A stretch of DNA of 64,000 nucleotides from NCBI GenBank assembly GCA_018654745.1, contig JABILA010000085.1, forward strand, positions 74,191-138,190, written 5' to 3'. The translations under genes were made by a program, and so were the position numbers. Of the stretch, positions 24,608 through 61,468 are shown in pieces. How positions within the stretch are numbered: the stretch's first letter is position 1; every line of letters begins with the position of its first letter. Origin of the DNA: Alphaproteobacteria bacterium. GTDB lineage: Bacteria; Pseudomonadota; Alphaproteobacteria; UBA2966. The notes under the pieces were generated by a model. That model saw only the letters and a list, made by a program, of their open reading frames with translations, did not search any database and was not told the DNA's origin.

Positions 24608-26059
24608 TTACCCGCCGTTTCGCGAACCCGGGGCCCGTGACGGGATATCGCCGGAACGGCCTGGCGTGTACATGCCGCCATAGGCGCCGCGCTTGACGAA
24701 GTTGCCATCGCCCTTTTGGCCCAGATACTGACCCTTGTCGATGATCATGCGACCTCGGCTGAAGACGGTTTCGGTGAAGCCTTTCACCGGCATGCCTTCA
24801 TAAGCGTTGTAATCGATGTTCATGTGATGGGTATGACCGTTGTAATAGCTGATGATCTCTTCGCGTTCAGGATCGAAGATCACGATGTCGGCGTCACTAC
24901 CCACAGCAATGGTGCCCTTTTTCGGGAACAGGCCAAAGATTTTGGCGGGTGAGGTTGATGTCAGTTCGACAAAACGGTTGATGTCCAGGTATCCCCCGTT
25001 GACGCCATAGTGATAGATCAGGCTCATACGGTTTTCGATGCCGGGGCCGCCATTGGGGATCTTGCTGAAGTCGCTTTTGCCCAGTTCCTTCTGTTCTTTC
25101 ATGCAGAATGGGCAATGATCCGTTGAAATGGCGTTCAGGGCATTGCCGCGCAATCCGCGCCACAGTTCTTCCTGGTTCCACTTTTCCCTGAGCGGCGGTG
25201 TCAGCACATATTTAGCGCCCTCAAAACCTGGCTCATCATATTTGTCGACATCCAGCAGCAGGTATTGCGGGCAGGTTTCAGCATGGGCCATGACGCCACG
25301 GGCCTGGGCCATGCGCAGCTCCTGCAGCGAGTCATAGCTGCTAAGGTGTACAATGTAGACCGGCGACTTCGCCACTTCGGCAATTGCCAATGCACGGTGA
25401 ACGCCCTCTGCTTCGAGGCGTGTGGGCCTGGTCAGGGCATGATATTTGGGTTCAATGTGGCCTTCCGACAGGGCGATCTTGATCAGCTCATCGATCACAA
25501 CACCATTTTCCGCGTGCATGCAAATCAGCGTACCGTCTTCGCCAGCCTGGCGCATGGCCCGGAATATTGTGCCGTCATCAGACATCATGGCCCCTGGATA
25601 GGCCATAAACATTTTGTAACTTGTGACCCCTTCGTCCGCCAGCGCCCGCATTTCCTTTGTGCGCGTTTCCGGCATATCTGTCAGGATCATATGGAAGGCA
25701 TAATCAATCGCTGTTTCCCCGGCAGCCTTGGCATGCCACGTTTCCAGGGCTTCCAGAGACGACTGCCCCTTCATCTGAACGGCGAAATCAATGATGCAAG
25801 TGGTGCCTCCGAATGCGGCGGCACGTGTGCCTGTTTCGAACGTATCCGACGTGGTTGTTCCACCAAAGGGAAGCTCGAGATGCGTGTGCGGATCGATACC
25901 GCCAGGGATCACCAGCTTGCCTGCGGCATCAACCACAACATCGGCTTCCAGTTGCAGATTTTTGCCAATCAGGTCAATCGTGTCGTCATTGACATAGATA
26001 TCTGCGTGATAGTCGTCTGTTGCCGTTACGATCCGGCCATTCTTGATTAATACGCTCAC
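24608..26059 (-). CDS. D-hydantoinase / dihydropyrimidinase (cyclic amidohydrolase)
   Basis: 483 aa from a GTG start with a GGGGAGG RBS. Starts MSVLIKNGRIV...GGIDPHTHL and has a carboxylated-Lys region. It has a C-terminal Gly/Pro-rich tail of about 25 aa. The longer ORF to 27061 is an artefact. Confidence 0.85.
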   Translation of the reverse strand: MSVLIKNGRIVTATDDYHADIYVNDDTIDLIGKNLQLEADVVVDAAGKLVIPGGIDPHTHLELPFGGTTTSDTFETGTRAAAFGGTTCIIDFAVQMKGQSSLEALETWHAKAAGETAIDYAFHMILTDMPETRTKEMRALADEGVTSYKMFMAYPGAMMSDDGTIFRAMRQAGEDGTLICMHAENGVVIDELIKIALSEGHIEPKYHALTRPTRLEAEGVHRALAIAEVAKSPVYIVHLSSYDSLQELRMAQARGVMAHAETCPQYLLLDVDKYDEPGFEGAKYVLTPPLREKWNQEELWRGLRGNALNAISTDHCPFCMKEQKELGKSDFSKIPNGGPGIENRMSLIYHYGVNGGYLDINRFVELTSTSPAKIFGLFPKKGTIAVGSDADIVIFDPEREEIISYYNGHTHHMNIDYNAYEGMPVKGFTETVFSRGRMIIDKGQYLGQKGDGNFVKRGAYGGMYTPGRSGDIPSRAPGSRNGG

Positions 26060-26089
26060 AAAATGCCTCCCCTGATCAATCTGGTTTGC

Positions 26090-26102
26090 TATAATTGTAT
26101 AC
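26090..26102. promoter_or_regulatory. TATAAT-TTGTATAC motif, followed by a TTGTAT repeat, in the divergent promoter between the D-hydantoinase and the ABC transporter
   Basis: Reads gcTATAATTGTATACTGTTGTATca. Confidence 0.4.
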
Positions 26103-26236
26103 TGTTGTATCATCTTGCACACTACGTGATCACAGAAATCATTAATTGGCCTTTGAGAATGACCAGGTAATAGTTTGAGATCGTGTTCATTCGCGTTAAG
26201 GCCGGAAAAATAACAATCGCTCCAGGGAGAACGAAG

Positions 26237-27508
26237 ATGGCCAAAGACAAGAAGAAGACTAGTAGCAAAGTATCGCGTCGCCAGTTTGTTGGCGGTGCCG
26301 CAGGCGCAGTCGCCGCAAGCTCGGTAGTCGGATTTCCGGCAATCGTCTCGGCAGCCGACCCTATTCGCGCCATTGGTCTGGGCGTGAGTATCATCAATGA
26401 AATTCAAAGCCGTGCCGCCAAGGATATTGGCTTTGGTATTCGGGGCCAGGCGCTTGGTTATGGTGCCCTGTTCGGCAAGACTTTGAACCAGAACGACCAG
26501 TATGAAGTGTCGGAATGCTATTTCGACATGTTCGACGCAATGGTGCCGTCCAAGGTATTCCAGCCCATTGATACCAAGCGTATCCGTGACTGGGACAAGG
26601 TCTCGAACCTTGTTAAAACCGGCAAGCTGACACCAGGTTCGCAAATCGGTCAGGGCGATGCACCTGTTACCAAGTTGTGGGTCGACAAGGACGGTAATCC
26701 AACCGATGGTCCGTCGCAATATATCTCGGCTGTTCCAGCTGCGCATAATGCGGACTCGCTGGGCTATAACCCGGACGACACCGGCCGCGCGATTGAAAGC
26801 TGGGCCGAACTCTACAGCCCGGATTTCAAAGGCAAGGTTGCGCTTATCAATGTGCCTCAGGTTGGTGTGATGGATGCTGCCATGGGCATGGAAGCGTTGG
26901 GTCTGGCGAAATTCGGCGACAAGGGTGACATGACCCGCGCTGAAATCGACACCTTGATCGAGTTCCTGATCGTCAAGAAAAAGGAAGGCCACTTCCGCGC
27001 TTTCTGGGAAACCTTCGGCCAGTCCGTGAACCTGATGGTATCCGGTGAAGTCGCCCTGCAAAGCATGTGGTCACCGGCGGTGACGGCTGTAAATGCTGAA
27101 GGTGTTAAGTGCGTCTATGCTTCACCAAAAGAAGGCATGCGTGGCTGGCATGGTGCATTGGCAATTTCCGCCAAGGCATCCGGCAAAAAGCTTGATCAGG
27201 CTTATGAATATATCAACTGGTGGCTGGATGGCTGGGCCGGTGCCTTTGTGGCGCGTCAGGGCTACTATTTCTCGACGCCGGCAAATACCAAAAAGCACCT
27301 GCCAAAAGCAGACTGGGATTTCTGGTATGAAGGCAAGCCTGCTGCCATGGAACTCAATGATCCGTTTGGCTCTCCATTGGTCGAAAAAGGCGCTGTCCGT
27401 GACGGTGGCTCCTATGAACAGCGCTTCAAGAACATCGCTGTCTGGAACTCGATCATGAAAGAAAATGATTATCTGGTGAAACGCTGGACCGAGTTTCTCG
27501 GCTCCTGA
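26237..27508 (+). CDS. ABC transporter periplasmic substrate-binding protein (PotD/PotF-like family) with a Tat signal
   Basis: GGGAGA RBS. Twin-arginine motif SRRQFVGGAAGA, followed by an SBP family-1 fold. Confidence 0.75.
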   Translation: MAKDKKKTSSKVSRRQFVGGAAGAVAASSVVGFPAIVSAADPIRAIGLGVSIINEIQSRAAKDIGFGIRGQALGYGALFGKTLNQNDQYEVSECYFDMFDAMVPSKVFQPIDTKRIRDWDKVSNLVKTGKLTPGSQIGQGDAPVTKLWVDKDGNPTDGPSQYISAVPAAHNADSLGYNPDDTGRAIESWAELYSPDFKGKVALINVPQVGVMDAAMGMEALGLAKFGDKGDMTRAEIDTLIEFLIVKKKEGHFRAFWETFGQSVNLMVSGEVALQSMWSPAVTAVNAEGVKCVYASPKEGMRGWHGALAISAKASGKKLDQAYEYINWWLDGWAGAFVARQGYYFSTPANTKKHLPKADWDFWYEGKPAAMELNDPFGSPLVEKGAVRDGGSYEQRFKNIAVWNSIMKENDYLVKRWTEFLGS

Positions 27509-30593: not shown

Positions 30594-33407
30594 TTAATCA
30601 GCTGCCTTCGCAGTCGCCTGGAGGAGCGACCAGACCGTCTCAAATGGCAGGTCATTAAACGCACCACCTTCATTGGCATTTTTCAGCAAGCCAAGCGCCT
30701 GCGTCTGAGCCTCATTATTTCCGGCCTTGTTCTCCAGGACCTTGAGAGCATCGGAGAAGGGAATCTCGCGCTTCTTTTTGGTGCCAAAATTATCACGCAC
30801 CAGATCAGACAGTTGTTCCGCCATCTCGCGGAATTCACCGCCACGACCAGGCTTGCCCCAAATGCCGCGAATGCCGTTGCTGGCAAAGCGCTGTTTCAGG
30901 CCTTCTGGCAGGGATTGGGCGACACCTTCCAGAACTTCACCAAGGGAGAAGCCTGAGGTGAACATGTCGCGGATGGTGTCAACGGTTCCGTCACCGCCGC
31001 CATACATCCGGATCTGGGCCTGGCTTAGGGCGTTACCCATGGCTTTGGCCTGATCAATATGCACATCACGTTCTGCTTCGATTTGCAGTTTGGAGAGTTC
31101 AAGGAAAGCGGCAGCGTCATTATATTTCTTGAGCGCTTCGGCCTTGGCTTCCATGCCATTTGCCTCGGCTTCCAACATACGCTGGGTATTGTTGACGCGT
31201 AGTTCCTCGATCTCGGCTTCGGCCCGACCGCGTGCCGCGGCTTCCTGGGTAATGCCATCGGCCGAGATGACCTGGGCTTCGCTGTTGGCCTTGGCCCGGA
31301 TCAGCGTTGCATCAGATTCTTCGGACGCTGACTTTTTACGGGCAGAGGCCTGACTGATCATATGCATGGAATTCACCGCTGCATCAGCTTCCTCGGCAAT
31401 GGTTTTGGTTTCCGCGGCCTGTTCAGCAGAAATCCGTTCCACTTCTTTCGACTGTTCGGCATCCGCAACCACACGGGCAGTCTCAACACCTTTTTCTGCT
31501 TTGGCTTTTTCAGCTGTGGTCTTCAGACGTTTGACTTCAGCATCTTCCAGTTCACGGGTCTTGTTAACGAGGACGATTTCACGATCACGCTCTTCCTTTT
31601 CACGGGCGAGGAAGCGCAGTATGTCAGCTTTTTCGCGTTCCTGCTCCTTGGCGATGATCTTGATTTCATCTTCCTTGGTTGCCAAGGCCTGGGCCGTGCG
31701 TGATACGCGGGCCGCTGCGTAATATTCGCCTTCCTTGTTGACCAGGGCGATTTCGCGATCCTTTTCCTCGGCTTCACGAGCCAGCTGGCGGCGAATTTCA
31801 GCGCGCTCCAGTTCTTCGGCTTTGCCAACAAGGGCAATATCACGATCCCGCTCTTCAGCTTCACGAGCCAATGAACGACGGATTTCGGCGGCTTCGCGGG
31901 CCTTGCTTTCGTCGATGACAGTTGCGTCGCGCTTTATCCGGGCCTGTTCGATGGTCAGCTCAGTGGCGATTTCTTCCTGCTCTACCTCCAGACGGCGTTC
32001 AAGAATAATGCGCTGCTTCTCGCTCAGGACACGCGCCTTCTCTTCGGCGATCTGCTTTTCCTGTTCGGCAACAGCGAGGGCTTCGTCCTTGTCAATATTC
32101 AGCACATTCAGCTTCGTATCCAGGGCCCGTTTGCGCATGGTCAAAGATGTGGCTTCCGTCACTTTGTGACGGGCATCCCGCGCAGCTTCTTCGGCTTTCA
32201 TGACCTCAGTTGTCTGGGCGATGTCTGCTTCCTGGCGTTCACGCTCCTTGGCAGATAACTGGATTGCCCTGTCTTTTTCAGCCGCTTCACGAGCCAGCGA
32301 GCGATCAATTTCGGCCAACTCATTTTGTTTGGCCTTTTCGACCAGGGCGATCTGGCGATCTTTTTCTGCCTGTTCCAGCGCCAGGTTACGCTCGATATTC
32401 GAGAGCTCTTCTTCCTTGGCTTTGCCGATCAGGGCGATTTCCTTGTCGCGGCGTTCTTTCTCCAGAGTCAAAGTGCGGTCAATTTCCGACAGCTCACGTT
32501 TCTTGGCTTCTTCGGTAATCGCGACTTCACGGTCTGTGCGCTGACGCTCCAGTTCAACTTCGTTGGAGATTTCGCGTTCTTCGACAGCCTTGCGCTGGTC
32601 CAGCATATAGACTTGCTTCTGACCCAGTTGCAGTGCCTGTTCGTTGGAAATGTCCTTGTCCTGACTGGCGTTCGCGAAGGCTTCTTTTCTTTCGATCTCC
32701 AGCAGTTCCAGCTGTGTATCGAGATCCTTCTGGCGAATGGCAACAGTTGTGCGCTTTTCGGTTTCGTGCACCTTGCGCTTGGCGTTGGAGGTAATCTCGG
32801 TGATGATCTTCAAACCTTCAGCATCAAAGATGTTGTTGGAATTGAAGTATTCCTTACCGGCCTGTTCCAGGGTCACAATGGTAACTTCTTCCAACAGCAA
32901 ACCGTTGACCTGGAAACTCGCAATAACGTTTTCCTTGACGGCCTGGGCAAACTCTTCGCGGTTCTCATGCAATTCGCTCAGGGTCTTGGTCGCGGCATAA
33001 CTGCGCAGGGCACTTACAACCTTGGCTTCCAGCAAGTTGCGAACTTTTTCAGCATCGAAGGTTTTGTCACCCAGACTGCGACTGGCGGTCAGCAGGTCAT
33101 CTTCCGTGCGCCCGACATGGGCATACAGTTCTGTGACAATATCAATCCTGATTTTGTCCGACGTCAAAACGGCCTGCTCGCGTGAGCGGCTGACGATCAG
33201 CTTGATGGTTTCCAGGGAAATCCACGATACCTCGTGGAAAACAGGCAGGACTATCGCACCACGCCCCAGGCACACCTTGGTGCCCAGAAAACCGGTTCGG
33301 ATAAAGCCCATGTTGGCTGGCGCTCTTTTGTACACCCAGATCGAGATGACATAAAGAATGGCCAGGACAACAATTGCCGAGAAGAAAGTTCCAATCCAAA
33401 GTTCCAT
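30594..33407 (-). CDS. Flotillin-like SPFH/Band-7 protein (YqiK family) with a greatly expanded coiled-coil repeat region (937 aa)
   Basis: N-terminal TM helix plus an SPFH domain (GFIRTGFLGTKVCLGRGAIVLPVFHEV...). It has at least six 29-31-aa repeats of consensus AEI-R-LAREAEEKDR-IALV-KA-E, and a YqiK-like C-terminus. Confidence 0.75.
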   Translation of the reverse strand: MELWIGTFFSAIVVLAILYVISIWVYKRAPANMGFIRTGFLGTKVCLGRGAIVLPVFHEVSWISLETIKLIVSRSREQAVLTSDKIRIDIVTELYAHVGRTEDDLLTASRSLGDKTFDAEKVRNLLEAKVVSALRSYAATKTLSELHENREEFAQAVKENVIASFQVNGLLLEEVTIVTLEQAGKEYFNSNNIFDAEGLKIITEITSNAKRKVHETEKRTTVAIRQKDLDTQLELLEIERKEAFANASQDKDISNEQALQLGQKQVYMLDQRKAVEEREISNEVELERQRTDREVAITEEAKKRELSEIDRTLTLEKERRDKEIALIGKAKEEELSNIERNLALEQAEKDRQIALVEKAKQNELAEIDRSLAREAAEKDRAIQLSAKERERQEADIAQTTEVMKAEEAARDARHKVTEATSLTMRKRALDTKLNVLNIDKDEALAVAEQEKQIAEEKARVLSEKQRIILERRLEVEQEEIATELTIEQARIKRDATVIDESKAREAAEIRRSLAREAEERDRDIALVGKAEELERAEIRRQLAREAEEKDREIALVNKEGEYYAAARVSRTAQALATKEDEIKIIAKEQEREKADILRFLAREKEERDREIVLVNKTRELEDAEVKRLKTTAEKAKAEKGVETARVVADAEQSKEVERISAEQAAETKTIAEEADAAVNSMHMISQASARKKSASEESDATLIRAKANSEAQVISADGITQEAAARGRAEAEIEELRVNNTQRMLEAEANGMEAKAEALKKYNDAAAFLELSKLQIEAERDVHIDQAKAMGNALSQAQIRMYGGGDGTVDTIRDMFTSGFSLGEVLEGVAQSLPEGLKQRFASNGIRGIWGKPGRGGEFREMAEQLSDLVRDNFGTKKKREIPFSDALKVLENKAGNNEAQTQALGLLKNANEGGAFNDLPFETVWSLLQATAKAAD
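31538..32498 (-). repeat. In-frame tandem repeat region, about 90-nt period, encoding the flotillin coiled-coil repeats
   Basis: Protein residues about 304-624 show repeated ELSEIDRTL / LAREAAEKDR / IALVxKA blocks. The corresponding DNA shows repeated gcgatttc...cttgtcgcg-type segments. Confidence 0.5.
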
Positions 33408-33469: not shown

Positions 33470-35743
33470 TCATGATACACCTGTTTTTCGCTCACCGAAA
33501 TCGAACAATTCCAGTGCTTTTCGACCGTGTTTCAAAGCCTCGCGTAAATCTGTTGTGGCTCTGAGATCAAGTTCATGCCGTCGCCCACCAATGACAACGC
33601 CATAGGCTTCGCGGGCTTTGTCCAGGGTCGTCAACTTGCGGGCGACATCATTTCTGACACGCTGTGGATCACGCTCAAGCGGATCACCCCAGCCTCCACC
33701 GCCAGCCGTTCGAAAGACAATTCTATCGCCTTCTTCGACCCGCACGTTATCAATTTTTGAGGGCAAGGGTTCGGGTTCAGCGTTGCCACGAATAATCCAT
33801 TTTGCCGAGCAAGCACCGGGTTGTCCGCCAAGAATACCCCAGGGCTGTGATTCATGACGATCGTCATGAATAGAGACGTCGCCCGGTTCCAGCAATCGAT
33901 AGACTTTTTCTATACCATTGCCGCCGCGATGTTTACCGGCACCACCGGTATCCGCAACGGAGCCATAACGCTCGATGACCATGGGATAGAAATTTTCGAG
34001 ATATTCCGTGGGAATGTTTTCAAACAAAGGCCACCAGGAATGGCCGTCCATGCCGTCACCGACCGGACGTCCCGGAATACCACCATAGAGAATTTCCATG
34101 AGCTGGAACGGTCGTTTATGACTGTCCGTGCCGGAAAACAGGAAATGTGGACTGGAGCCATAACCCGCAGCCGTTGCCATCTCGGGTGCGTGACGACTGA
34201 GGGCACCGCCCATAACATCAAACTGGCGCGACAGGGCATGGGTGCGACAACCCAGCGCTGCCGGGAATTCAGGATTAACCAGCGACCCCTTGGGCAGGGT
34301 CACATGAATCAGATCATAAAAGCCGTCATTAAACAAAATCTGCGGATCAAAAACCATGATCATGTAGACGCCAATGAACATCTTGAACATGCCGTCATGC
34401 AGATAGAAATTAATCGGACCCGGTGCCTGGGCCGACGTTCCGGTCCAGTCAAAATAAGCGTGATCCCCTTCGCGCCAGACCGTCAGCTTCATTTTGAAGG
34501 GACCGTTACCGCAACCATCGTCATCCACAAAGTCTTCGAAATATTGGGGCTCTTCCGGCAGGTTTTGTACGATCAACTTGCGCATGGCCCGGTTGGTGCG
34601 TTCCAGCAAGGCTTCGCAGGCCTGCTTATAGGTCCCGGTGCCAAAGCGATCACAGATTTCGATCACCCGACGTTCACCGGCACGACACCCGGCAACAATG
34701 GCCATCAGGTCACTGTAATTCATTTCCGGGGTGCGGGTGTTGTTCATCAGGATATCAAGGGCGGCTTCGTTCAGGACCCCGGCGTCATAAATCTTGATCG
34801 GCGGGATGCGCATACCTTCGCCAAAGATCGAGGTCGCTGCCGTCGGCATGCTGCCCGGCACGGGGCCACCAACATCCATCATGTGGCCAAACATCGACGC
34901 AAAACCAACCAGTTCCGGATTTGATTTCGCGCCCACAAAGACCGGGATCAAAACCATCCAGTCATTGATATGGCTGATGGCACCGCCGCACTTATAGGGA
35001 TCACTTTGCAGGATCACGTCACCTGGTTTGAGATCAAAATCCTGCTGCTTCAGCATCTCGGAAATATAAGAGCCGAACTGGCCGACGATCATGCGCCCGT
35101 CGGCATCTGTGATCATGGGAAATTCGTCATGCTGTTCACGGATTACCGGCGACATGGCCGACCGGAACAACAAGGCATCCATTTCGTGGCGCGCATTGCG
35201 CAAGGCATTTTCGATCAGGTCCAGGGTCACAACGTCCAGAGGACCTGCAACTGCCACTGCACCTTTGCCAGCACGGGCAGCAGGTGATTTGGGTGACTGA
35301 TCCTCTTCCACCGACGGGGCCGGCGCACGTCCGGTGAACTGATCCGCACATCGTAGGGCTGCTTCGGTCGCAGCCTGCTCAAAAGCCAGTGCCCAGTTGC
35401 CGTCCAGCGAGGCTGAGCCCTGATCTGCCTTGGATTGCCCCTCTACCGTCAACTTGATGCGGACAATCGCTTTATCATTGTCGGATTTGACATCAATGAT
35501 GTCGTGCGACCAGTCAAAATCAAATCGCCTGTTCAAGGCGACGACCGCTGCCGTGGCCAGTTTCAGATTGCCTGGCACCTGATTGTCTGATTGTGACCCG
35601 GCCTGACTGGCCGGTCGGGCGCTGGGGCTGAGCAAACTGGCATCGTCCATCTGGCGACTGAACAGCTGGTCAAACTGGTCCTTGTTGGCGGTCAACAAGT
35701 CGTCCAGCGAAATGGGAGTGCGCGTGCGGGTTTCTTCAGACAT
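33470..35743 (-). CDS. hyuB: Hydantoinase B/oxoprolinase family protein, copy 2, with an N-terminal extension of about 170 aa (helix, linker, small beta-rich module, P/A-rich linker)
   Basis: The HyuB core begins at about aa 170 (VVTLDLIENALRNAR). The ATG lies 2 nt after the hyuA-2 stop. The extension opens with ISLDDLLTANKDQFDQLFSR. Confidence 0.8.
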   Translation of the reverse strand: MSEETRTRTPISLDDLLTANKDQFDQLFSRQMDDASLLSPSARPASQAGSQSDNQVPGNLKLATAAVVALNRRFDFDWSHDIIDVKSDNDKAIVRIKLTVEGQSKADQGSASLDGNWALAFEQAATEAALRCADQFTGRAPAPSVEEDQSPKSPAARAGKGAVAVAGPLDVVTLDLIENALRNARHEMDALLFRSAMSPVIREQHDEFPMITDADGRMIVGQFGSYISEMLKQQDFDLKPGDVILQSDPYKCGGAISHINDWMVLIPVFVGAKSNPELVGFASMFGHMMDVGGPVPGSMPTAATSIFGEGMRIPPIKIYDAGVLNEAALDILMNNTRTPEMNYSDLMAIVAGCRAGERRVIEICDRFGTGTYKQACEALLERTNRAMRKLIVQNLPEEPQYFEDFVDDDGCGNGPFKMKLTVWREGDHAYFDWTGTSAQAPGPINFYLHDGMFKMFIGVYMIMVFDPQILFNDGFYDLIHVTLPKGSLVNPEFPAALGCRTHALSRQFDVMGGALSRHAPEMATAAGYGSSPHFLFSGTDSHKRPFQLMEILYGGIPGRPVGDGMDGHSWWPLFENIPTEYLENFYPMVIERYGSVADTGGAGKHRGGNGIEKVYRLLEPGDVSIHDDRHESQPWGILGGQPGACSAKWIIRGNAEPEPLPSKIDNVRVEEGDRIVFRTAGGGGWGDPLERDPQRVRNDVARKLTTLDKAREAYGVVIGGRRHELDLRATTDLREALKHGRKALELFDFGERKTGVS

Positions 35744-39722: not shown

Positions 39723-40046
39723 CTAGTCCGCCGTCAGGTCGGCAATCAAGTCATCAGCCAGCGGATCAAAGGACCGCCCGGTCAGGGTTTCCGCCTGGGC
39801 CCACATTTGCGCCAGATTATCGACAATGGCCGTTTTGCCGGTATTGCCCTTGAGGATATAGGCATTGCCTGACCAATCCTTGAGGCCGAGACCATAATGC
39901 CCAAGAACGCGGTTAACGATGCGGGTGCGTTGCTGGCGTTCCCGAAGGGATGTCCCCGGATCTGATTGTGCGGCAAAGGCATCCGGGTTTGTTGACTGGT
40001 CCGTCCAGTGACCCCGCCCGCCAAGGACACCACACAGGCCACACAT
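39723..40046 (-). CDS. Hypothetical small protein (107 aa) beginning MCGLCG, translationally coupled to the COG0523 GTPase
   Basis: Its stop abuts the GTPase ATG, and its ATG lies 6 nt after the deacetylase stop. No family recognised. Confidence 0.45.
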   Translation of the reverse strand: MCGLCGVLGGRGHWTDQSTNPDAFAAQSDPGTSLRERQQRTRIVNRVLGHYGLGLKDWSGNAYILKGNTGKTAIVDNLAQMWAQAETLTGRSFDPLADDLIADLTAD

Positions 40047-40051
40047 ATCCG

Positions 40052-41065
40052 TTACCTCGGGTTTCGGGCGGCAAAGTCATCGGCAATTTCATCAAATGTG
40101 CAGAACCGCACACCCGTATGGGCGCTGATATGATCAAAGACCCGTTGCAGCATCATCTGAACCTGCGGTCGCCCGGACACATCCGGATGGATCGTCAAGG
40201 TGAAGACAGCATAATCATATTCGTTATAAACCCAGTCGAACTGATCAATCCACAATTGTTCGATATCGCGCGGATTAACAAAACCATGACTGTTTGGAGC
40301 GCCCTTGATGAACATCATCGGTGGCAAATCATCGAGATACCAGCTGCCGGGAATATCAATCAGATCCGTTTCCTGACCACGAACCAGCGGTTTCATCCAT
40401 TCGTCCGGGTGCTTGGAATAATCGATCTTGGTCCAGCTGTCGCCAACGCGCGCATAAAACGGGTGGAAGTCGTCGTTCATCAAACTGTGGTCGTACTTGA
40501 TGCCCTTGGCCAACAACAGTTCGTTGGTAATGGGACTGAATTCCCACCACGGCGCTACATAGCCGGTGGGTCGCCTGCCGGAAACCTCTTCAATCAGCTC
40601 GATACATTTGTCCATCACCGCTTCTTCCTGAACCGGTGTCATGGCGATGGGATTTTCATGACTGTAGCCATGCATGCCAATTTCATGTCCGGCATCAACC
40701 ACCATCTGGGTTTCTTTCGGAAAAGTCTCGATGGAGTGGCCGGGGATAAACCAGGTGGTGGGGATTTGCCATTTGTCGAACAAGCGCACCAAACGCGGCA
40801 CCCCCACTTCACCGGCAAACAAACCACGGGAAATATCACAAGGCGAATCTTCGCCACCGTATGACCCCAACCAACCGGCAACAGCATCCACATCAACACC
40901 CACGGCACAAAGGATTTCCTTGCGTCCGCCACTGGCCGCAGACCGGCTGGCGATGGAACTGGAGGCTGAGCTGGAAGAAAAGGCCGGGCGAGGCTGATAT
41001 CGCCCACCTGACACACCGCCGCGAATACCCTGTGTTGGTCGACCAGACCCGGAACTGTCACTCAT
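40052..41065 (-). CDS. Polysaccharide deacetylase (CE4) family protein, PuuE/allantoinase-like, with an N-terminal Ser/Gly-rich disordered segment of about 50 aa
   Basis: Catalytic region ...[13 protein letters not shown]...[13 protein letters not shown]...HPDVSGRP. The N-terminus reads [47 protein letters not shown]. Confidence 0.75.
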
Positions 41066-41312: not shown

Positions 41313-42041
41313 TTGTTGAGCGATTGGCAAGACGAAACACTGCAGAGTTATCAGAACAAGGGCCTGGGCTCTCGTGCCGGGTTCGGCAAACGTCCGGCAT
41401 TGTTAATAGTGGATTTCATTAACGGATTTACCGACCCGTCTTCGCCGCTGGGTGGTGATTTTTCGAGCCAGTTGGCCGTGACCGGTCAATTGCTGGAAGT
41501 TTTCCGCCGCGAACGGCTGCCCATCGCATATACCACTATTGAATATGACGCCGATTATCGCGATGCCGGTGTCTTTATCAAAAAGGTCCCATCGCTTTCG
41601 GTGCTGCTGCGGGGCTCTCCCATGTGCAATATCGATGATCGTATCCGCCCCGAAACCGGCGAATATATTGTCTCCAAAAAATACGCCAGCAGCTTCTTCG
41701 GCACCAATCTGGATACCTGGTTGCGCAACAATGACGCCGACACCGTTGTCATTGTCGGCTGCACCACAAGCGGATGCGTCCGCGCTTCTGCCGTTGATTC
41801 GCTGCAATACGGTTATTACACCATCGTTGTCCGGGAAGGCTGCGGTGACCGGGCAGATGGCCCCCACGAAGCCAATCTTTTTGATATGGACGCCAAATAT
41901 GCTGACGTTGTCTCGACTGCAGAAGCCCTGGACTATGCCAACGGCCTGACCCGCAAACCTGATTCTCATGCAGCGCGTGTAGCTGGCCGCAACTTCAAAA
42001 GCTGGTGGGCCGAAGGCAACACAGACAAGCAGGAAGGATAG
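41313..42041 (+). CDS. Isochorismatase-family cysteine hydrolase (N-carbamoylsarcosine amidase-like), copy 2
   Basis: TTG start with an AGGGAGA RBS. Carries VVIVGCTTSGCVRASAVDSLQYGYY. It is a paralog of 20399-21046. Confidence 0.75.
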   Translation: MLSDWQDETLQSYQNKGLGSRAGFGKRPALLIVDFINGFTDPSSPLGGDFSSQLAVTGQLLEVFRRERLPIAYTTIEYDADYRDAGVFIKKVPSLSVLLRGSPMCNIDDRIRPETGEYIVSKKYASSFFGTNLDTWLRNNDADTVVIVGCTTSGCVRASAVDSLQYGYYTIVVREGCGDRADGPHEANLFDMDAKYADVVSTAEALDYANGLTRKPDSHAARVAGRNFKSWWAEGNTDKQEG

Positions 42042-42045
42042 ACCG

Positions 42046-42255
42046 ATGTCCGGAAAATACACCTCTGCCTTTGATGACATGCTGGCCAGTAATGAAAAGC
42101 AGATGAACGATGTCCTGGGTGTATCACCGGCATCCCGGCACCAGAGCAAACCCGTCGCAGCAGAGCAAGCACCTGTCCCGGACACGTCCCGGGCAGCGAC
42201 CAGTGATACGGTGTCGGGCACGGCCAATGGCATCCCTTTTACCCTGAAAACCTGA
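42046..42255 (+). CDS. Small protein (69 aa): N-terminal helix homologous to the HyuA-1 and HyuB-2 N-terminal peptides, followed by a Pro/Ala/Ser-rich disordered tail
   Basis: AGGAAGGA RBS. AFDDMLASNEKQMNDVLG aligns with LDDLLTANKDQFDQLFS (HyuB-2) and FDTQLDDFKNEFDQLGG (HyuA-1). Confidence 0.45.
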   Translation: MSGKYTSAFDDMLASNEKQMNDVLGVSPASRHQSKPVAAEQAPVPDTSRAATSDTVSGTANGIPFTLKT

Positions 42256-42290
42256 CGACAAACCAAGAACCATAAATCGGAGTTAACCGT

Positions 42291-43160
42291 GTGAGTAATT
42301 CAATCATCCGCGACAAACTGGATCGTGGCGAATTTTTTCTGGCGCCTGGCATCCACGATATGATGGCCGCCGTGATTGCCAACAAGGTTGGATTTGAAAT
42401 TGTCTATGGCACAGGCTACTGGATGACCGCTTCGGCTTATGGTCTGCCGGATGCCGGTATTGCAACCTATTCCCAAATGCTGGACCGGGTTTCTACCCTG
42501 GCCAGAACTTCGGACGCGGCGGTGATTGCGGATGCGGATACCGGTTACGGCGGCTTGTTGAATGTGCACCACACCGTGCAAGGATATGAAGAGGCCGGGA
42601 TCACGGCCATTCAGATTGAAGACCAGGAATTCCCTAAAAAATGCGGCCACACACCCGGCAAAAAATGTGTGCCGCTGGAAATCATGACTGACAAGATCAA
42701 GGTCGCCTGCGATGCCCGCAAGGACAAGAAGAATACCCTGATCGTGGCCCGGACAGATATTTACCAGGCCGAAGGGTTTGATGCCTCCATCCGCCGTGGC
42801 GCTGCCTTTGCCGAAGCCGGCGCTGACATTATCTTTGTCGAAGCCCTGACCAGCGAAGACGAAATGCGCCGGGCCTGCGATGAAATCGACGCCCCGATGA
42901 TTTCCAATATGGCCCAGGGTGGTGATACCCCCATGCGCACAGGCGAAGAACTGGCGGATATTGGCTATGCCTGCGCCATCTATCCGGCAACGACAGCCCT
43001 GTCCGCGGCCTATGCCACCGAACAGGCCCTGCTGCATTTGAAACACCAGGGCACCAACGAAAGCCCGGATGTGCCGATGTTTGATTTCCAGGAGTTTAAT
43101 CGCCTGATCGGCTTCGAAGAAGTCTGGGCCTTCGACAAAAAATGGGCCCGCGACGACTGA
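42291..43160 (+). CDS. Isocitrate lyase/PEP mutase superfamily enzyme (2-methylisocitrate lyase / carboxyvinyl-carboxyphosphonate phosphorylmutase-like)
   Basis: GTG start with a GGAG RBS. Carries ADADTGYGG...IQIEDQEFPKKCGHTPGK...ARTD, close to PrpB. Confidence 0.8.
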   Translation: MSNSIIRDKLDRGEFFLAPGIHDMMAAVIANKVGFEIVYGTGYWMTASAYGLPDAGIATYSQMLDRVSTLARTSDAAVIADADTGYGGLLNVHHTVQGYEEAGITAIQIEDQEFPKKCGHTPGKKCVPLEIMTDKIKVACDARKDKKNTLIVARTDIYQAEGFDASIRRGAAFAEAGADIIFVEALTSEDEMRRACDEIDAPMISNMAQGGDTPMRTGEELADIGYACAIYPATTALSAAYATEQALLHLKHQGTNESPDVPMFDFQEFNRLIGFEEVWAFDKKWARDD

Positions 43161-48818: not shown

Positions 48819-49541
48819 TCAGTCCTGAAATTCTGCCGCCAAAGCTGCGACAGCGGCATCAATAATTTCCTGCCCTACCCCCGCACTGGCCAGTGCCGAA
48901 TGTGATCCGACCCGACCATCCGGGAATTGTGCCCGGTGTTCGTCTGGTGGTCCATGGCGATCACCTGAGTGCTTCTTGATGTAGTCCGCCGTCAGTTTTT
49001 CCGGCGGTTGTTCCGCGTCCCCCGCTGGTAAAGTCCGGTGCGTTGCCTGGGTTATCGCAACCTCGGACGGCGTTGCATGCATGCCTTCCCAGTCACCGTA
49101 ATTTTCATCACGTAACACATTCACCGCATCAAAATCCCACCAGCTTTTGATACGAATTTTCACCTCAGGAAAGCCTGTGGCAACGCGTTTCAAAGGTTCC
49201 AGATTGGCCCCGTGACCGTTCAGAAAATAGATATTCCCAAATCCGTGATGCACCAGCCCGGCCACGATTTCCGTGACCAGAGATTCAAATACAGATACCG
49301 AAATCGAGACCGTTCCCGGGAACGACATATTGAACGGCGCTGGCGTATAAGCCAGTACAGGTGCCACATAAACGCCAGCCACATCACCAGCCTGACGGGC
49401 GATTTCCTCGGCGCAAAGTGCGTCCGTGCCGATCAGTCCCATGGGGCCGTGCTGTTCCGTTGAACCGGTGGGAATGATGATGTGATCTGACTGTTTCAGA
49501 TAAGCATCGACCTCCTGCCAGGTTGCAAGATCAAGCCTCAT
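48819..49541 (-). CDS. Creatininase (creatinine amidohydrolase) family protein
   Basis: 240 aa with IIPTGSTEQHGPMGLIGTDALCAEEIAR and a GHGAN motif. Its start overlaps the GST stop. Confidence 0.8.
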   Translation of the reverse strand: MRLDLATWQEVDAYLKQSDHIIIPTGSTEQHGPMGLIGTDALCAEEIARQAGDVAGVYVAPVLAYTPAPFNMSFPGTVSISVSVFESLVTEIVAGLVHHGFGNIYFLNGHGANLEPLKRVATGFPEVKIRIKSWWDFDAVNVLRDENYGDWEGMHATPSEVAITQATHRTLPAGDAEQPPEKLTADYIKKHSGDRHGPPDEHRAQFPDGRVGSHSALASAGVGQEIIDAAVAALAAEFQD

Positions 49542-56442: not shown

Positions 56443-57987
56443 TCAAGCCTGCAATTGAGGAAAAATGTCGACCCCCGCCGCATCAATGATGGCGCCGGAA
56501 CGGATCAAGGCTGTGCTTGCTTCAATGTCCGGGCTGAGAAACCGGTCATCCCCCATGGTTTCGACATCCTGTCGCAGACACAACAAGGCTTGTCGCAAGG
56601 CAGGACTGGTGGACAGAGGACTTCTGAATTCCACGCCCTGGCAGGCCGTCAGATATTCAACACCAATGATCGCGGACAAATTATCCACCATTTCCAGCAG
56701 TCGCCGGGCTGCATGTGCGGCCATGGAAACATGATCTTCCTGATTGGCGCTGGTCGGTGTCGAATCCACAGAACAAGGCGAGGCCTTTTGTTTGTTTTCC
56801 GACATCAAGGCAGCTGTTGTAACCTCGGCAATCATAAAACCGGAATTCACACCGGGGTTCGGGGACAAGAAGGCCGGCAAACCAAAATTCATGGCTGGGT
56901 CGACCATCAAAGCGACACGGCGCTGGGCGATGGCACCAATTTCTGCAATGGCAAGTGCGGTATGATCGGCGGCGAGGGCCACGGGTTCTGCATGAAAGTT
57001 ACCACCGGACACGATGGAACCGTCTTCAACAAAAACCAGGGGATTATCGGTGACGGCGTTGGCTTCAATTTGCAGGGTCTTGCCCACGGCGCGAAGCGAA
57101 TCCAGACAGGCCCCCAGCACCTGTGGTTGGCAGCGAATGCAGTAGGGATCCTGCACGCGTTCATCATCATCGCGGTGGGAATCGCGGATTTTCGATCCGG
57201 ACATCAGGGAACGCAAAGCTTCGCCCACGTCGATCTGGCCCTGGTGCCCCCTGAGGGCGTGGATTTCGGGTCGGAACGGTGCGGCGGAACCCATGATAGC
57301 ATCCGTCGACATGGCACCGGTGACCAGCGATGCCATGGCGCAGCGCCAGGCCTCAAACAATCCGGCCAATGCCAAAGCCGTTGACACCTGGGTGCCGTTG
57401 ATCAAGCCGAGACCCTCTTTGGGACCAAGCACAACAGGTGACAAACCGGCGGCTTCCAGTGCTGCCTGACCAGACATCCTGCGACCTTCAAACAGTGCTT
57501 CACCCTCGCCGATCATGGTAGCCGTCATATGTGCCAGTGGGGCCAGATCACCAGAGGCACCAACGGACCCTTGACCAGGTATAACCGGAGAGACACCTTT
57601 GGCCAGCATGGCTTCCATCAATTTTATGACTTCCAGACGCACGCCGGAAGCACCGCGTCCCAGTGACATCAGCTTTAACATCATGATCAAACGGACGACC
57701 GGTTCCGACAAGGGTTCGCCAACGCCACAGCAATGGGAAAGGATCAGGTTGCGTTGCAGGCGTTCAGTATCCTGGGCCGGAATCTGGGTGTTGGCCAGTT
57801 TGCCAAAGCCGGTGTTCACGCCATAAACCGCTTCAGTTCCCTGCGCAGCCCTGGCCAGTACGGCGGCGGCGGCGTTGATCTTTTCATGCGTATCGGGATG
57901 CAACTGAACGGCGGGACTTTGGCGATACAGCACTTCCAGGTCATTCAGTGACACCTGGCTGGGAACAAGGATCATGGGTTCAGTCAT
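56443..57987 (-). CDS. hutH: Histidine ammonia-lyase
   Basis: 514 aa with the [18 protein letters not shown]-forming Ala-Ser-Gly motif. Confidence 0.9.
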
Positions 57988-58007
57988 TTGCTGCTCTCAT
58001 TTGATTT

Positions 58008-58763
58008 TCATTGACCGGTGCTGAACCGGCCGACAAGTCTGTGGCGATCACCAGGATAGGTAAGTTGTACGAAAGTCAGGCCCTGCCCTGTCATCCAGGT
58101 CGTACGCTCGACCCGCAGACAGGCATCGCCCGTGTCGATTTGCAAAAGTGAGGACTGTTCTTCCGATGCATTGACCGCAAGGATCGTGTGTTCAACCCGG
58201 CTCCAGGGCACGTTGCCGAGAAGCCAGCGGTTTGGAGGAACTTCGTCAAAAGGTGCGTCTCGTGCACCCGGTACCGCTGCCAGATTGATATAGCGTTCTT
58301 CGATTAGCACAGCCTCACCGTCGCTGAGATGACGACACTTCAGGAACAACCCGGTTTCACCGGCGTCACAATCAAGGCGCTCTGCAACGTGGCTGCCAGC
58401 CGGCTTTTCCTGACGCTCAAGCAGTTCGTAGGCATAGACGGCACCCGTTTCTTCGATTTCGTCTGCGATGTCGCGCAATTCCATGACCGCATGTTCAACT
58501 ACTGCCGGGGCAACAAATGTACCGTTGCGGCGGTGGCGGACGATCAGGTTTTCATCCGCCAGCATTTGCAGTGCACGGTTCACCGTCATGCGGGAAGTGT
58601 TAAATATTTGCAAGAACTCATGCTCGGACGGCAGGCGATCTCCGGGTGCCTTGAGACCGCTGTGAATAGCCGAGGCGATGGACCGTTTGATCTGCCGATA
58701 AAGCGCCCCCCGGCCATCCAGCGTGAATACGGGTTTTTCTGTCGTGTGTGTTTCAGTCATCAC
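58008..58763 (-). CDS. hutC: Histidine utilisation repressor (GntR/HutC subfamily, UTRA domain)
   Basis: Carries LPSEHEFLQIFNTSRMTVNRALQMLADENLIVRHRRNGTFV. It sits between hutH and hutF. Confidence 0.85.
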   Translation of the reverse strand: MMTETHTTEKPVFTLDGRGALYRQIKRSIASAIHSGLKAPGDRLPSEHEFLQIFNTSRMTVNRALQMLADENLIVRHRRNGTFVAPAVVEHAVMELRDIADEIEETGAVYAYELLERQEKPAGSHVAERLDCDAGETGLFLKCRHLSDGEAVLIEERYINLAAVPGARDAPFDEVPPNRWLLGNVPWSRVEHTILAVNASEEQSSLLQIDTGDACLRVERTTWMTGQGLTFVQLTYPGDRHRLVGRFSTGQ

Positions 58764-60121
58764 GCAGCCACCAGTTTTTTCAAAACATGAGCATAACGCG
58801 CCAGGTTTTGTTCACGGGCCACATGACGACCTTCGTGAACCAGATGTTTTCCGCCAACCCAGACGTCGCGAACAACGGAGTTATCGCCCGCAAAAATCCA
58901 GCCATCCAGTATGTCATCGCCTGATCGCGCCATCAGAGATGGGTGCCGGTCATCCAATGAAACAATGTCTGCCCTTGATCCCGGCGCTATTTTGCCGATT
59001 GCGCGACCACTGGCCTGCGCACCACCTGTCAGCACTGTGTCCAAAAGGTGACGCCCGGTGGAACCACCTGGCTTGGCCAGCACATTTCGGCCCTGACGTT
59101 TGAGCCTTTGGCCATATTCCAGTAGCCGCAATTCTTCGGCGGCACTGATCCTCACGTTGCTGTCGCTACCGATTGCCATGTGACCGTTGAGTTCGAGATA
59201 CATGTCAGCGGCAAATATTCCATCCCCGAGATTGGCTTCGGTGACAGGACAAAGGCCTGCGACGGCACCGCTTTGTGCCAGTGCTTTCATTTCGGCGTCG
59301 GTCATATGGGTAGCATGCACCAGGCACCAACGGTCATCGACGGACGCCTGATCAAACAACCATTCAACCGGTCTGGCACCGGACCACGCAAGGCAGTCTT
59401 CGACCTCTTGTTGTTGTTCGGCAATATGGATATGGACCGGGCCGTCGGGCGACTGGTCCAGAATTTCAGACAGCCCCTGCGGTGTCGCGGCACGCAGGGA
59501 ATGAGGCGCAATACCAACAACTGTATCGGACACAGTTTTCGCCGCGGTTGTTGCGCCTTCGACAAGTTGTGCAAACATTTCAGGTGTATTGGCAAAGCGG
59601 CCCTGGGCTTCACCAGGTTCCGCACCGCCAAAGCCACTGCTTTCGTAAAAGACCGGTAGCAATGTCATGCCAATGCCGGAATCTGTGGCGGCTTCCAGTA
59701 TGGCCAGGGACATCTCGGCAATATTGTCAAAGGGACGACGACCAGGGGCGTGATGCAAATAATGAAATTCGGCCACGGATGTGAACCCGGCTTCCAGCAT
59801 TTCCATGTAGGCAAGAGTGGCAATCGCGGCCAGGTCTTCTGGTGTTACCTGGTCGACAAAGCGATACATCAGATCCCGCCAGGTCCAGAAGCTGTCATCG
59901 CTCTGGCCCCGACGTTCAGTTAATCCCGCCATGGCTCGCTGGAAAGCATGGCTGTGGCAGTTGGGCACCCCAGGGAGTGCGATGGTACCAGAATAATCGA
60001 CATCGGGTCGCGCAATGCCTGTTGTCACAGACGTGATCCAACCCTCGGCATCAGCCTCGATCAGAACGTCCTTGGCCCAGCCGGCAGGCAACAGACAATG
60101 GGTAAAATGGAAGCGCGTCAT
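58760..60121 (-). CDS. hutF: Formiminoglutamate deiminase (amidohydrolase superfamily)
   Basis: Starts MTRFHFTHCLLPAGWAKDV ... HSHAFQRAMAGLTERRG, with an AGGAAAAGAAG RBS. Confidence 0.85.
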   Translation of the reverse strand: MTRFHFTHCLLPAGWAKDVLIEADAEGWITSVTTGIARPDVDYSGTIALPGVPNCHSHAFQRAMAGLTERRGQSDDSFWTWRDLMYRFVDQVTPEDLAAIATLAYMEMLEAGFTSVAEFHYLHHAPGRRPFDNIAEMSLAILEAATDSGIGMTLLPVFYESSGFGGAEPGEAQGRFANTPEMFAQLVEGATTAAKTVSDTVVGIAPHSLRAATPQGLSEILDQSPDGPVHIHIAEQQQEVEDCLAWSGARPVEWLFDQASVDDRWCLVHATHMTDAEMKALAQSGAVAGLCPVTEANLGDGIFAADMYLELNGHMAIGSDSNVRISAAEELRLLEYGQRLKRQGRNVLAKPGGSTGRHLLDTVLTGGAQASGRAIGKIAPGSRADIVSLDDRHPSLMARSGDDILDGWIFAGDNSVVRDVWVGGKHLVHEGRHVAREQNLARYAHVLKKLVAA

Positions 60122-60145
60122 CTTCTTTTCCTGATGTGCATTATA

Positions 60146-60195
60146 TTGTCTATACAAAAAGACTTGCCCCCTGTCCATTCAAATTGTATAGACAA
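60146..60195. promoter_or_regulatory. Two HutC-type operator palindromes, TTGTCTATACAA and TTGTATAGACAA, in the hutF-hutI divergent promoter
   Basis: Sites at 60146-60157 and 60184-60195. They resemble the Pseudomonas hut operator TTGTATGTACAAG. Confidence 0.55.
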
Positions 60196-60226
60196 TTAAT
60201 CCTGACTTCAAAAACGGAGTTCCCTG

Positions 60227-61468
60227 ATGGCTTTTCTGGTCGACACAATCTGGCGAAACGCCCGCATTGCAACGATGTCTGCGGGTTCCAGAAACTATGG
60301 CATTATAGAAGATGGCCTGATCGCGGCACAGGATGGCCGCATTGCCTGGGTCGGGGCAGCCAGCGAAGCACCACAATTTGATGCCATACATTTGCATGAT
60401 TTGCAGGGCCGCTGGATAACGCCGGGTCTGGTGGATTGCCACACACATCTGGTTTACGGCGGCAACCGTGCCCTGGAATTTGAACAGCGTCTGCAAGGGG
60501 CGACGTACGAAGAAATATCCCGTGCCGGGGGCGGTATCGTGTCGACCGTGCGGGAAACGCGCAATGCAACACTTGAGATGCTGATTTACCAAGCCACGCC
60601 ACGTCTTGAAAGTTTGATGGCCGACGGTGTCACGACAATTGAAATCAAATCCGGTTACGGCCTGAACGTTGAAACCGAGATCAAGATGCTGGAGGCAGCA
60701 CGTGCCCTGGCGGAAGATCACAACATCCGGGTGCAGACAACTTTCCTCGGTGCACATGCCCTGCCCCCGGAAGCGGACGGTGATTCTGACGCCTATATCC
60801 AGCAGGTCTGCGAAGAACAATTGCCAGCCGTTGCGGCAGCAGGATTAGCAGACGCCGTCGATGCTTTTTGTGAGGGCATTGGATTTTCCAATGATCAGAC
60901 AAGACGCGTGTTCGAAGCCGCCAGAGTACATGGCTTGCCTGTAAAGCTACACGCAGAACAGCTTTCAAACCTGGGGGGTGCGGCCCTGGCTGCGGAGTTT
61001 GGCGGATTGTCGGCGGATCATCTGGAATATGTTGATGAACCTGGTATCGAAGCCATGGTCAAAGCCGGAACAGTGGCGGTGATCTTGCCTGGCGCTTTCT
61101 ATTTTCTGCGCGATACCCATGTGCCGCCGGTCGATTTGATGCGCAAACATGGTGTGCCCATGGCGCTGGCCAGTGACAGCAACCCGGGCTCTTCCCCCAT
61201 GGGCTCCCTGCTTTTGGCCCTGAACATGGCTTGTACGCTTTTTCATATGACACCGGTCGAAGCACTGGCAAGTGTGACATGCAACGGCGCTGCAGCTCTT
61301 GGGTTGCAAGACGAAACCGGCTCCGTCGAAGTCGGCAAGGCATGTGATCTCGCAGTCTGGGATATCGAACATCCGGCGGAACTGAGCTACACCATCGGCC
61401 TGAACCGACTGCACATGCGGGTCTGGAACGGCCTGGTTGAATACAAAACCAGCGGCCTGACTTCGTGA
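60227..61468 (+). CDS. hutI: Imidazolonepropionase
   Basis: 413 aa with [34 protein letters not shown]. Confidence 0.9.

Follow-up and report, generated by a model that had tools for sequence, protein, structure and literature searches.

Behind an isochorismatase-family gene, and ahead of a methylisocitrate-lyase-like gene, lies a short open reading frame of 69 codons, ORF69, in the 64,000-nucleotide stretch of alphaproteobacterial DNA analysed here (the window). Is ORF69 a real gene, to which family does it belong, and which of the enzymes encoded around it does it serve? Its surroundings are those of a nitrogen-compound catabolic island, with a creatininase, two creatinase-like genes, two HyuAB pairs, a dihydropyrimidinase-like amidohydrolase and hut genes. 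The features discussed below are collected in Table 1. In the annotation the ORF69 gene carries the label "hypothetical".

Table 1. Position of ORF69, its elements, and the related or neighbouring features in the window
Feature	Coordinates	Strand	Basis or remark
HyuA-1, 821 aa, with an N-terminal extension of about 140 aa	17867..20332	-	Directly 3' of isochorismatase-1
HyuA-1 conserved N-terminal helix region, aa 7-33	20234..20314	-	Clade conservation, hhalign
Flotillin-like SPFH protein, 937 aa	30594..33407	-	Directly 3' of HyuB-2
HyuB-2, 757 aa, Hydantoinase_B with a 170-aa N-terminal extension	33470..35743	-	Pfam, hhalign
HyuB-2 putative Rad52-like alpha-beta3-alpha domain, aa about 63-138	35330..35557	-	Without the hairpin insert
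HyuB-2 N-terminal helix, aa 12-29, SLDDLLTANKDQFDQLFS	35657..35710	-	Homologous to the ORF69 helix
"MCGLCG" protein, 107 aa	39723..40046	-	
PuuE-like Polysacc_deac_1	40052..41065	-	
Isochorismatase-2, cysteine-hydrolase family	41313..42041	+	Start codon uncertain (233-242 aa); Pfam, PDB, synteny
NFKSWW C-terminal tail of isochorismatase-2	41991..42008	+	Candidate docking site
Shine-Dalgarno-like AGGAAGGA	42031..42038	+	7 nt 5' of the ORF69 ATG
ORF69, 69 aa, type II (mini) member of the helix-linker-hairpin family	42046..42255	+	ATG 42046 to TGA 42253-42255
N-terminal amphipathic helix, aa 8-24	42067..42117	+	AF2 pLDDT about 82; family alignments; muH 0.33
P/A/S/T-rich disordered linker, aa 26-54	42121..42207	+	Alignments, AF2
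C-terminal beta-hairpin motif [VI]SGTANG[IV]PF[TSRK]L[KT]x, aa 55-69	42208..42252	+	Alignments, AF2
PEP_mutase/ICL-family (methylisocitrate-lyase-like) gene	42291..43160	+	Probably co-transcribed with ORF69; not a conserved partner

ORF69 is a conserved gene

The stop codon of isochorismatase-2 (TAG, 42039-42041) lies 4 nt 5' of the ATG of ORF69, and the ribosome-binding site claimed by the original prediction is indeed found at the expected place. This motif sits within the last codons of isochorismatase-2, which fits a translational coupling between the two genes; ORF69 is probably coupled to isochorismatase-2 in this way. On the other side, the GTG of the lyase starts 35 nt beyond the ORF69 stop, the very distance previously given, and a site scan detected neither terminator-like nor plus-strand promoter-like sites between isochorismatase-2, ORF69 and the lyase.

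The identical ORF69 protein is present on more than 74 contigs, the MAG GCA_018672995.1 from an uncultured marine alphaproteobacterium included; a scan of genome contigs returned one locus only. Residues 1-26 and the C-terminal 14 residues stay nearly unchanged in orthologues, whether these share 74%, 58-51% or about 45% identity; the linker between them is freely substituted, and through in-frame indels its length varies between about 29 and 44 aa. Codon differences within both conserved modules are mostly silent, with synonymous to non-synonymous counts of 5:1 and 4:0 for the window compared to L006, and of 6:0 and 5:1 for L010 compared to L012. On the opposite strand a frame of 287 codons (41403..42266) is open in the window, but it is a shadow ORF: stops interrupt it in six of the seven orthologous loci checked, the exception being L022, where one antisense frame has no stop. 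Altogether the conservation, the synonymous excess and the breaking of the antisense ORF elsewhere indicate that ORF69 is a real and constrained protein-coding gene, free-standing as first described. To judge from these alignments, purifying selection conserves it, in marine alphaproteobacterial MAGs and also outside them.

A fusion of ORF69 with isochorismatase-2 through stop readthrough or frameshift was considered and dropped, because the frames differ and because the geometry of the junction differs according to the lineage, between a gap of 4 nt and an overlap of 4 nt.

Two short modules joined by a flexible linker

The protein had been described beforehand as a helix followed by a disordered tail. 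The AlphaFold2 model computed with an alignment of relatives supports the helix (residues 8-24) and a low-confidence coil (25-54) corresponding to the P/A/S/T linker; the tail is nevertheless not wholly disordered, as it ends in a conserved beta-hairpin that had been overlooked (55-60/63-68, pLDDT 75-86). The helix obeys the family motif [YF]xS[AP]FDD[LM]LAxNxKQ[MLF]DxLxGG, or in a broader form [YF]xS[AP]FDD[LM]LAxNx[KR][QE]xDxLxGG. The hairpin of ORF69 reads VSGTANGIPFTLKT, and there is no second copy of this C-terminal motif within the window. Two conserved short modules separated by a flexible linker compose the anatomy to be expected for a docking or adaptor peptide.

A family of accessory proteins in two forms

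When 1.84 billion representatives were searched exhaustively by HMMER with the N-terminal profile, 15 matches were obtained. Nearly all are proteins of 67-98 aa laid out like ORF69, from the helix through a P/A/S/T linker to the C-terminal hairpin motif, and this mini architecture is kept in about 10 clusters at 50% identity. One match is a longer protein of 176 aa, P0017, and another, P0009, is a false positive, in fact a LysM-like repeat protein. The enlarged alignment, used in a word-indexed search, brought in about 55 further proteins, 160-220 aa long and free-standing as well, which we name type I; at least one belongs to an Immundisolibacterales MAG. Four entries (P0018, P0019, P0041 and P0051) were put aside as apparent type I genes whose call is truncated or shifted in frame.

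Type I proteins are laid out as a helix (MSSRYTSAFDDLLAKNRRELDALY...), a PAS-rich linker and a folded domain carrying the sequence GSAGGVAFSF in a glycine-flanked insert. This insert, a hairpin, is the counterpart of the C-terminal motif of ORF69: the ORF69 hairpin aligns with GSAGGVAFSF of type I and with NGSVNGYKFRL of P0017, giving the family motif G[TS][AV][NG]G[VI][PA]F[x][LF], and a hairpin is predicted in both AF2 models, that of ORF69 and that of type I. An HMM made of the three window peptides (ORF69, HyuB-2 and HyuA-1) is circular and was excluded as evidence; leave-out HMMs and profile-profile tests were used instead. Run over the window translated in six frames, the HMM derived from type I helices only has a single significant match, ORF69 (E 2e-7), and the match of ORF69 to the whole-family HMM reaches E 5e-15.

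ORF69 is thus a reduced, "type II" form of an accessory protein, in which the two most conserved short elements of type I are retained. As the full-length relatives are free-standing proteins of 160-220 aa, the mini form most likely arose from such a protein and not from an extension of the lyase. We hold this descriptive part, that is the family of ORF69, its architecture and its context, with high confidence. Pfam, NCBIfam, PHROGs and PADLOC gave no meaningful match for ORF69, for type I, for the HyuB-2 extension or for the 107-aa neighbour.

The folded domain may resemble that of Rad52

In the AF2 model of the type I protein P0030, the helix (8-25) and a disordered segment (29-73) precede a helix (H79-88), three strands (E93-102, E105-113 and E120-128), the hairpin (137-146) and a long helix (H155-177). 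The type I models are of modest confidence, with a mean pLDDT of 65.6 and an alignment shallow in diversity. Among the known systems closest to this domain is the N-terminal single-strand-annealing domain of Rad52 and Mgm101 (PDB 8g3g, 5jrb, 9yi6), and the best PDB match of the type I sequence profile is Rad52 (E 0.031), a "GW" strand and an "AAFERA..." helix being aligned. In Pfam, searched up to E 10 and with Rad52_Rad22 (PF04098) included, P0030, P0017 and the HyuB-2 extension found nothing, and ORF69 found one unrelated weak match. Moreover the basic stretch ERAKKS, at the start of the long helix of yeast Rad52, becomes ERARED in type I and EQAATE in HyuB-2, so that its basic residues are not conserved. 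The type I domain would adopt a Rad52-like alpha-beta3-alpha fold, a likeness that falls short of demonstrating membership of the Rad52 family.

HyuB-2 carries a fused copy of the family protein, HyuA-1 a more distant helix

The N-terminus of ORF69 had been said to align with those of two hydantoinase subunits encoded in the window, HyuB-2 and HyuA-1. In larger alignments the likeness holds well for HyuB-2. BLASTP matches ORF69 to its N-terminus with E 7e-4, none of 5000 shuffles exceeds the observed Smith-Waterman score for the two peptides, and the comparison of the HyuB-2 helix with the family by hhalign gives a probability of 95.6% (E 1e-8). A family HMM constructed without the Hyu peptides also recovers this helix, with E 0.017 over the whole window and 0.0013 on the peptide. 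The helix is kept in L012, L016 and L017. We observe that the start called by NCBI for HyuB-2 cuts off this conserved helix.

The similarity extends beyond the helix. When the HyuB-2 extension is aligned with type I by hhalign (probability 96.6%, E 6e-10), about 26 residues are skipped, exactly at the hairpin insert, and the domain HMM scores E 5e-10 on HyuB-2. L016 and L017 have HyuB orthologues of about 70% identity in which the extension is preserved, and the hairpin-less domain is found on HyuB in all three type II lineages with enough flanking sequence, the window clade, L016 and L017. An HMM search of the window located the helix module in ORF69 and HyuB-2 only, and the folded domain in HyuB-2 only. 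Judged by sequence, what HyuB-2 bears at its N-terminus is the family protein in fused form, with helix, linker and domain, minus the hairpin that ORF69 keeps.

For HyuA-1 the relation is weaker. Its extension has a helix and then a PAS-rich linker of about 110 residues, and lacks a folded domain; the first 33 residues are conserved within the clade and the linker is variable. The pairwise comparison with ORF69 is not significant (666 of 5000 shuffles) and the family HMM leaves the HyuA-1 N-terminus undetected. Profile-profile comparison nevertheless relates the HyuA-1 helix to the family without a gap (hhalign probability 70%, E 4e-5), in the register of the original prediction. The HyuA-1 helix is probably a divergent member of the ORF69 helix module, through a relation that we qualify as moderate to marginal.

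The constant neighbour is an amidohydrolase

Conservation and synteny in relatives had been suggested as a test; the constant neighbour turns out to be the gene upstream, not the lyase. An orthologue of isochorismatase-2 is found directly 5' of the helix-protein gene in the window and at every related locus with readable neighbours, i.e. about 20 loci from at least nine lineages, with isochorismatase-2 identities down to 53%. The spacing between both genes goes from about 30 nt down to a 4-nt overlap. All the isochorismatase-2 orthologues of this set terminate, after a variable spacer, with [DNS]Fx[RKSQ][WF]W, an FxxWW tail that is absent from the paralogue isochorismatase-1. The nearest solved relatives of isochorismatase-2 are N-carbamoylsarcosine amidohydrolases (E 1.6e-64 and 1.4e-36).

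Other genes accompany the pair less regularly. The PuuE-like gene and the gene of the 107-aa "MCGLCG" protein recur near it, a distant high-GC lineage included. L028 and L029 show the order isochorismatase-family amidohydrolase, type I, HyuA, and the first cluster of the window is ordered isochorismatase-1, helix-bearing HyuA-1, HyuB-1. In the type I lineages L015, L019 and L027, no Hyu gene lies within 10 kb, which suggests that the core role of the family may concern the amidohydrolase alone.

A possible tether between amidohydrolase and hydantoinase

In the creatinine route, an ATP-dependent N-methylhydantoinase of the HyuAB type produces N-carbamoylsarcosine, which is the substrate of N-carbamoylsarcosine amidase. 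Since the product of the one enzyme is the substrate of the other, a tether holding both is the most economical reading of ORF69: we infer, with about an even chance of being right, that it is an adaptor subunit linking the ATP-dependent hydantoinase with the isochorismatase-2 amidohydrolase. Helix and hairpin would be two separate binding motifs, making of ORF69 a flexible bivalent tether that holds the amidohydrolase beside HyuAB, in the manner of a docking domain or of the scaffold subunit of a two-enzyme metabolon. One end would dock on the amidohydrolase, possibly on its WW tail, FxxWW being a candidate site for the helix. The HyuB-2 domain lacks the hairpin and ORF69 has the hairpin without the domain, which suggests that the hairpin may dock into the HyuB-2 domain, where it would fill the empty site. 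We assign motifs to partners on two grounds, the order of the genes and the complementary hairpin loss.

N-methylhydantoin is degraded via N-carbamoylsarcosine to sarcosine (PMC4417704), and the system of N-carbamoylsarcosine amidohydrolase and N-methylhydantoinase (PDB 26st, 1nba; PMC4417704) resembles ours in three respects: the partner of ORF69 is closest to the former enzyme, the helix-bearing enzymes are of the HyuA/HyuB type, and creatininase and creatinase-like genes are present in the window. It differs in that our literature search found for these enzymes neither an accessory or tethering protein nor N-terminal extensions. The NCBIfam scores obtained here are far below the equivalog cut-offs.

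A more elaborate assembly can be imagined, which we regard as speculative and rather unlikely. A Rad52-like, possibly ring-forming hub would recruit, by helices borne on flexible arms, an N-carbamoyl-amino-acid amidohydrolase to hydantoinases; here the hub would have been split, hub and helix being fused to HyuB-2 and ORF69 providing in trans the missing hairpin strand and a second helix, a case of fission and complementation, and the whole may sit on a flotillin platform.

Among known systems, AtzG, which accompanies the 1-carboxybiuret hydrolase AtzE, and GatC, which accompanies GatA, are small accessory subunits of amidohydrolases. Like ORF69 they are of about 70 aa, are encoded together with an amide-hydrolysing enzyme of N-heterocycle catabolism and are presumed to act in complex formation, not in catalysis. 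Their partner, however, is an amidase-signature enzyme and not an isochorismatase-like cysteine hydrolase, they have no detectable sequence similarity with ORF69, and ORF69, unlike them, is mostly disordered with two short motifs. A second comparison is with the encapsulation peptides of microcompartments, the cargo-loading peptides of encapsulins and the docking domains of PKS/NRPS, which are terminal docking or targeting peptides. As in ORF69, HyuB-2 and HyuA-1, a short amphipathic helix at a terminus is joined to the rest by a flexible linker of low conservation, and one module is present on several proteins of a pathway. They are, however, unrelated to ORF69 in sequence, genes for a shell, an encapsulin or a megasynthase are absent from the window, and the ORF69 module also occurs on its own, in a mini-protein that bears a second motif.

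Alternative roles

ORF69 could act without bridging anything, as a competing or regulatory decoy: its helix would compete with those of HyuB-2 and HyuA-1 for a shared docking site, or its hairpin would plug the amidohydrolase, in order to tune assembly or activity. A small, disordered and free-standing protein that shares its helix module with HyuB-2 and is encoded with the amidohydrolase could well behave so. Type I proteins, however, carry both motifs on a folded domain, at loci without helix-bearing Hyu nearby and hence without an obvious competitor, and two independently conserved motifs suit bivalent binding better; we therefore find this role improbable, though worth keeping in mind.

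The helix might instead be a targeting peptide, directing ORF69, HyuB-2 and HyuA-1 to an assembly of the flotillin-like SPFH protein or to a protein compartment, as microcompartment and encapsulin peptides do. A terminal amphipathic helix with a poorly conserved linker has the right appearance, and the arrangement flotillin-HyuB-HyuA is kept in L016 and L017, so that the flotillin-like protein may be, speculatively, a platform. But type I loci have no flotillin within 10 kb, no microcompartment-shell or encapsulin Pfam family occurs among the window genes or in related loci, and the constant neighbour in every locus is the amidohydrolase, not flotillin. These observations, the first two especially, weaken the targeting role to a slender possibility.

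The original prediction looked downstream, and proposed ORF69 as an adaptor bringing the lyase into a complex or as the remnant of a former N-terminal extension of that enzyme. This proposal had in its favour the short distance between the two genes, without a terminator between them, and the retention of the lyase 3' of the small-protein gene in the window clade and L021-L023. Synteny largely refutes it: apart from the window clade, one sister lineage alone (L020-L023) has a lyase 3' of the helix-protein gene, and the lyase is absent downstream in L015, L016, L017, L019, L027, L028 and L029. Its place is taken by an HMGL-like gene on the opposite strand in L016 and L017, by an FAA hydrolase gene in L015 and by a PIN gene in L019. 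As for the lyases with an in-frame N-terminal version of the peptide, which the remnant idea calls for, there is none among the matches of the family searches, and the full-length relatives are free-standing proteins with a Rad52-like domain. The partner being always an isochorismatase-family gene, ORF69 appears neither a relic of the downstream lyase nor an adaptor for it, and we give both ideas very little credit.

It is equally hard to see in ORF69 a non-functional, decaying remnant of a type I gene. It certainly lost the folded domain of type I, but the persistence of the mini form in its ten or so clusters with both motifs, the synonymous excess, a linker accepting only in-frame indels, and the retention of the ribosome-binding site and of the coupling geometry all speak against decay. 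Finally, a nucleic-acid role after the Rad52-like fold (single-strand annealing or binding) and a RiPP-type precursor peptide can be practically dismissed, as ORF69 has no Rad52-like domain at all and no Pfam match supporting one, the ERAKKS stretch is not kept and the neighbourhood is purely catabolic, and as no RiPP-modifying enzyme is found near ORF69 or in the related loci, where the neighbours are hydrolases and catabolic enzymes only, and the C-terminal "core" is conserved and not variable.

Significance

If ORF69 does tether the amidohydrolase to the hydantoinase, it would represent a compact, genetically encoded coupling of two consecutive enzymes of hydantoin- or creatinine-type nitrogen catabolism, made of a 17-residue helix, a linker and a 14-residue hairpin, and the family would provide a case of a Rad52-type fold recruited outside nucleic-acid transactions. 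Docking peptides and small scaffold subunits are already known kinds of thing. The literature search gave no description of such a protein or of the Hyu N-terminal extensions, and the family, its Rad52-like domain in a catabolic setting, the HyuB fusion and the reduction to two motifs are not described in the libraries and literature searched. For annotation purposes, this is a family without a Pfam, NCBIfam or PHROG model. Whatever the mechanism, its strict pairing with one subfamily of FxxWW-tailed amidohydrolases offers a clean lead on a small-protein subunit in abundant marine Alphaproteobacteria. The tryptic peptide YTSAFDDMLASNEK would be diagnostic of ORF69.

The amidohydrolase and hydantoinase genes

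The window forms a catabolic island for nitrogen compounds, with a creatininase gene, two creatinase-like M24 genes, two genes like N-carbamoylsarcosine amidohydrolase (CSHase), two HyuAB pairs and a hut (histidine utilisation) cluster. In the window and in the related loci L006-L029, all amidohydrolases encoded ahead of a helix-protein gene (that of ORF69, the 69-aa helix protein, or of a relative) carry [DNS]Fx[RKSQ][WF]W after a variable spacer. This C-terminal motif is subfamily-specific; isochorismatase-1, the paralogue before HyuA-1, is without it. Among clade members the PAS linker of HyuA-1 keeps conserved islands, i.e. APVIAPTPTVAP, SY[VT]PQP and RRTP[SA]GGDY.

The start of HyuB-2 differs between annotations: NCBI places it at Met32, giving 726 aa (MBT3788986.1, MBT7746824.1) and losing the conserved helix, while the JGI and ENA calls give 757 aa. 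Since residues 1-31 are kept in L012, L016 and L017, sequence conservation favours the long form. The HyuB-2 extension also contains a Rad52-like alpha-beta3-alpha domain, an unexpected fusion of a hydantoinase subunit to a recombination-type fold.

Neighbouring genes and ORFs

The order Band_7-HyuB-HyuA is retained in L016 and L017, and the flotillin-like SPFH protein next to HyuB-2 might offer the enzymes bearing the N-terminal helix a platform at the membrane. Long repeated coiled-coil segments are seen in this protein.

The amidohydrolase/helix-protein pair travels with a second pair, in which an uncharacterised protein of 107-113 aa starting with MCGLCG (43% identity between distant lineages) is always accompanied by a PuuE-like gene of the polysaccharide-deacetylase family; in the window a CobW-type GTPase is a further partner of the MCGLCG protein.

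The 817-codon ORF is over-extended: gene callers find there a 501-aa dihydropyrimidinase-like amidohydrolase, and the 300 upstream codons look non-coding. The 287-codon antisense ORF overlapping isochorismatase-2 and ORF69 is rejected as a shadow ORF, because it stays open in this genome alone and, of 7 orthologous loci that were checked, 6 interrupt it with stops.

In L028 and L029 a conserved Cys-rich ORF (..FVCSGCRWWH..GYCRRFPPSRRENGVGAWP..DWCGEY..) sits between HyuA and the type I gene, which encodes the full-length helix protein.

Coordinates of the features (window positions unless a locus is named)
Feature	Position	Strand	Remark
Catabolic island	2454..3611, 4381..5562	+	
Catabolic island	48819..49541	-	
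Catabolic island	56443..63944		
HyuA-1 residues 1-140	19913..20332	-	N-terminal helix, long PAS linker
Over-extended ORF	24608..27061	-	TTG start
Flotillin-like SPFH protein	30594..33407	-	937 aa; directly downstream of HyuB-2
HyuB-2 N-terminal extension	35234..35743	-	residues 1-170; contains the Rad52-like domain
HyuB-2 stretch dropped by NCBI	35651..35743	-	residues 1-31
MCGLCG protein and PuuE-like gene	39723..40046 and 40052..41065	-	
Same pair, related loci	L015 4563..5911, L019 3523..5270, L027 645..1987		
Antisense ORF	41403..42266	-	
Isochorismatase-2 tail motif	41991..42008	+	residues 227-232; same in L006-L029
Cys-rich ORF	L028 1865..2143, L029 1918..2187	-	89-92 aa
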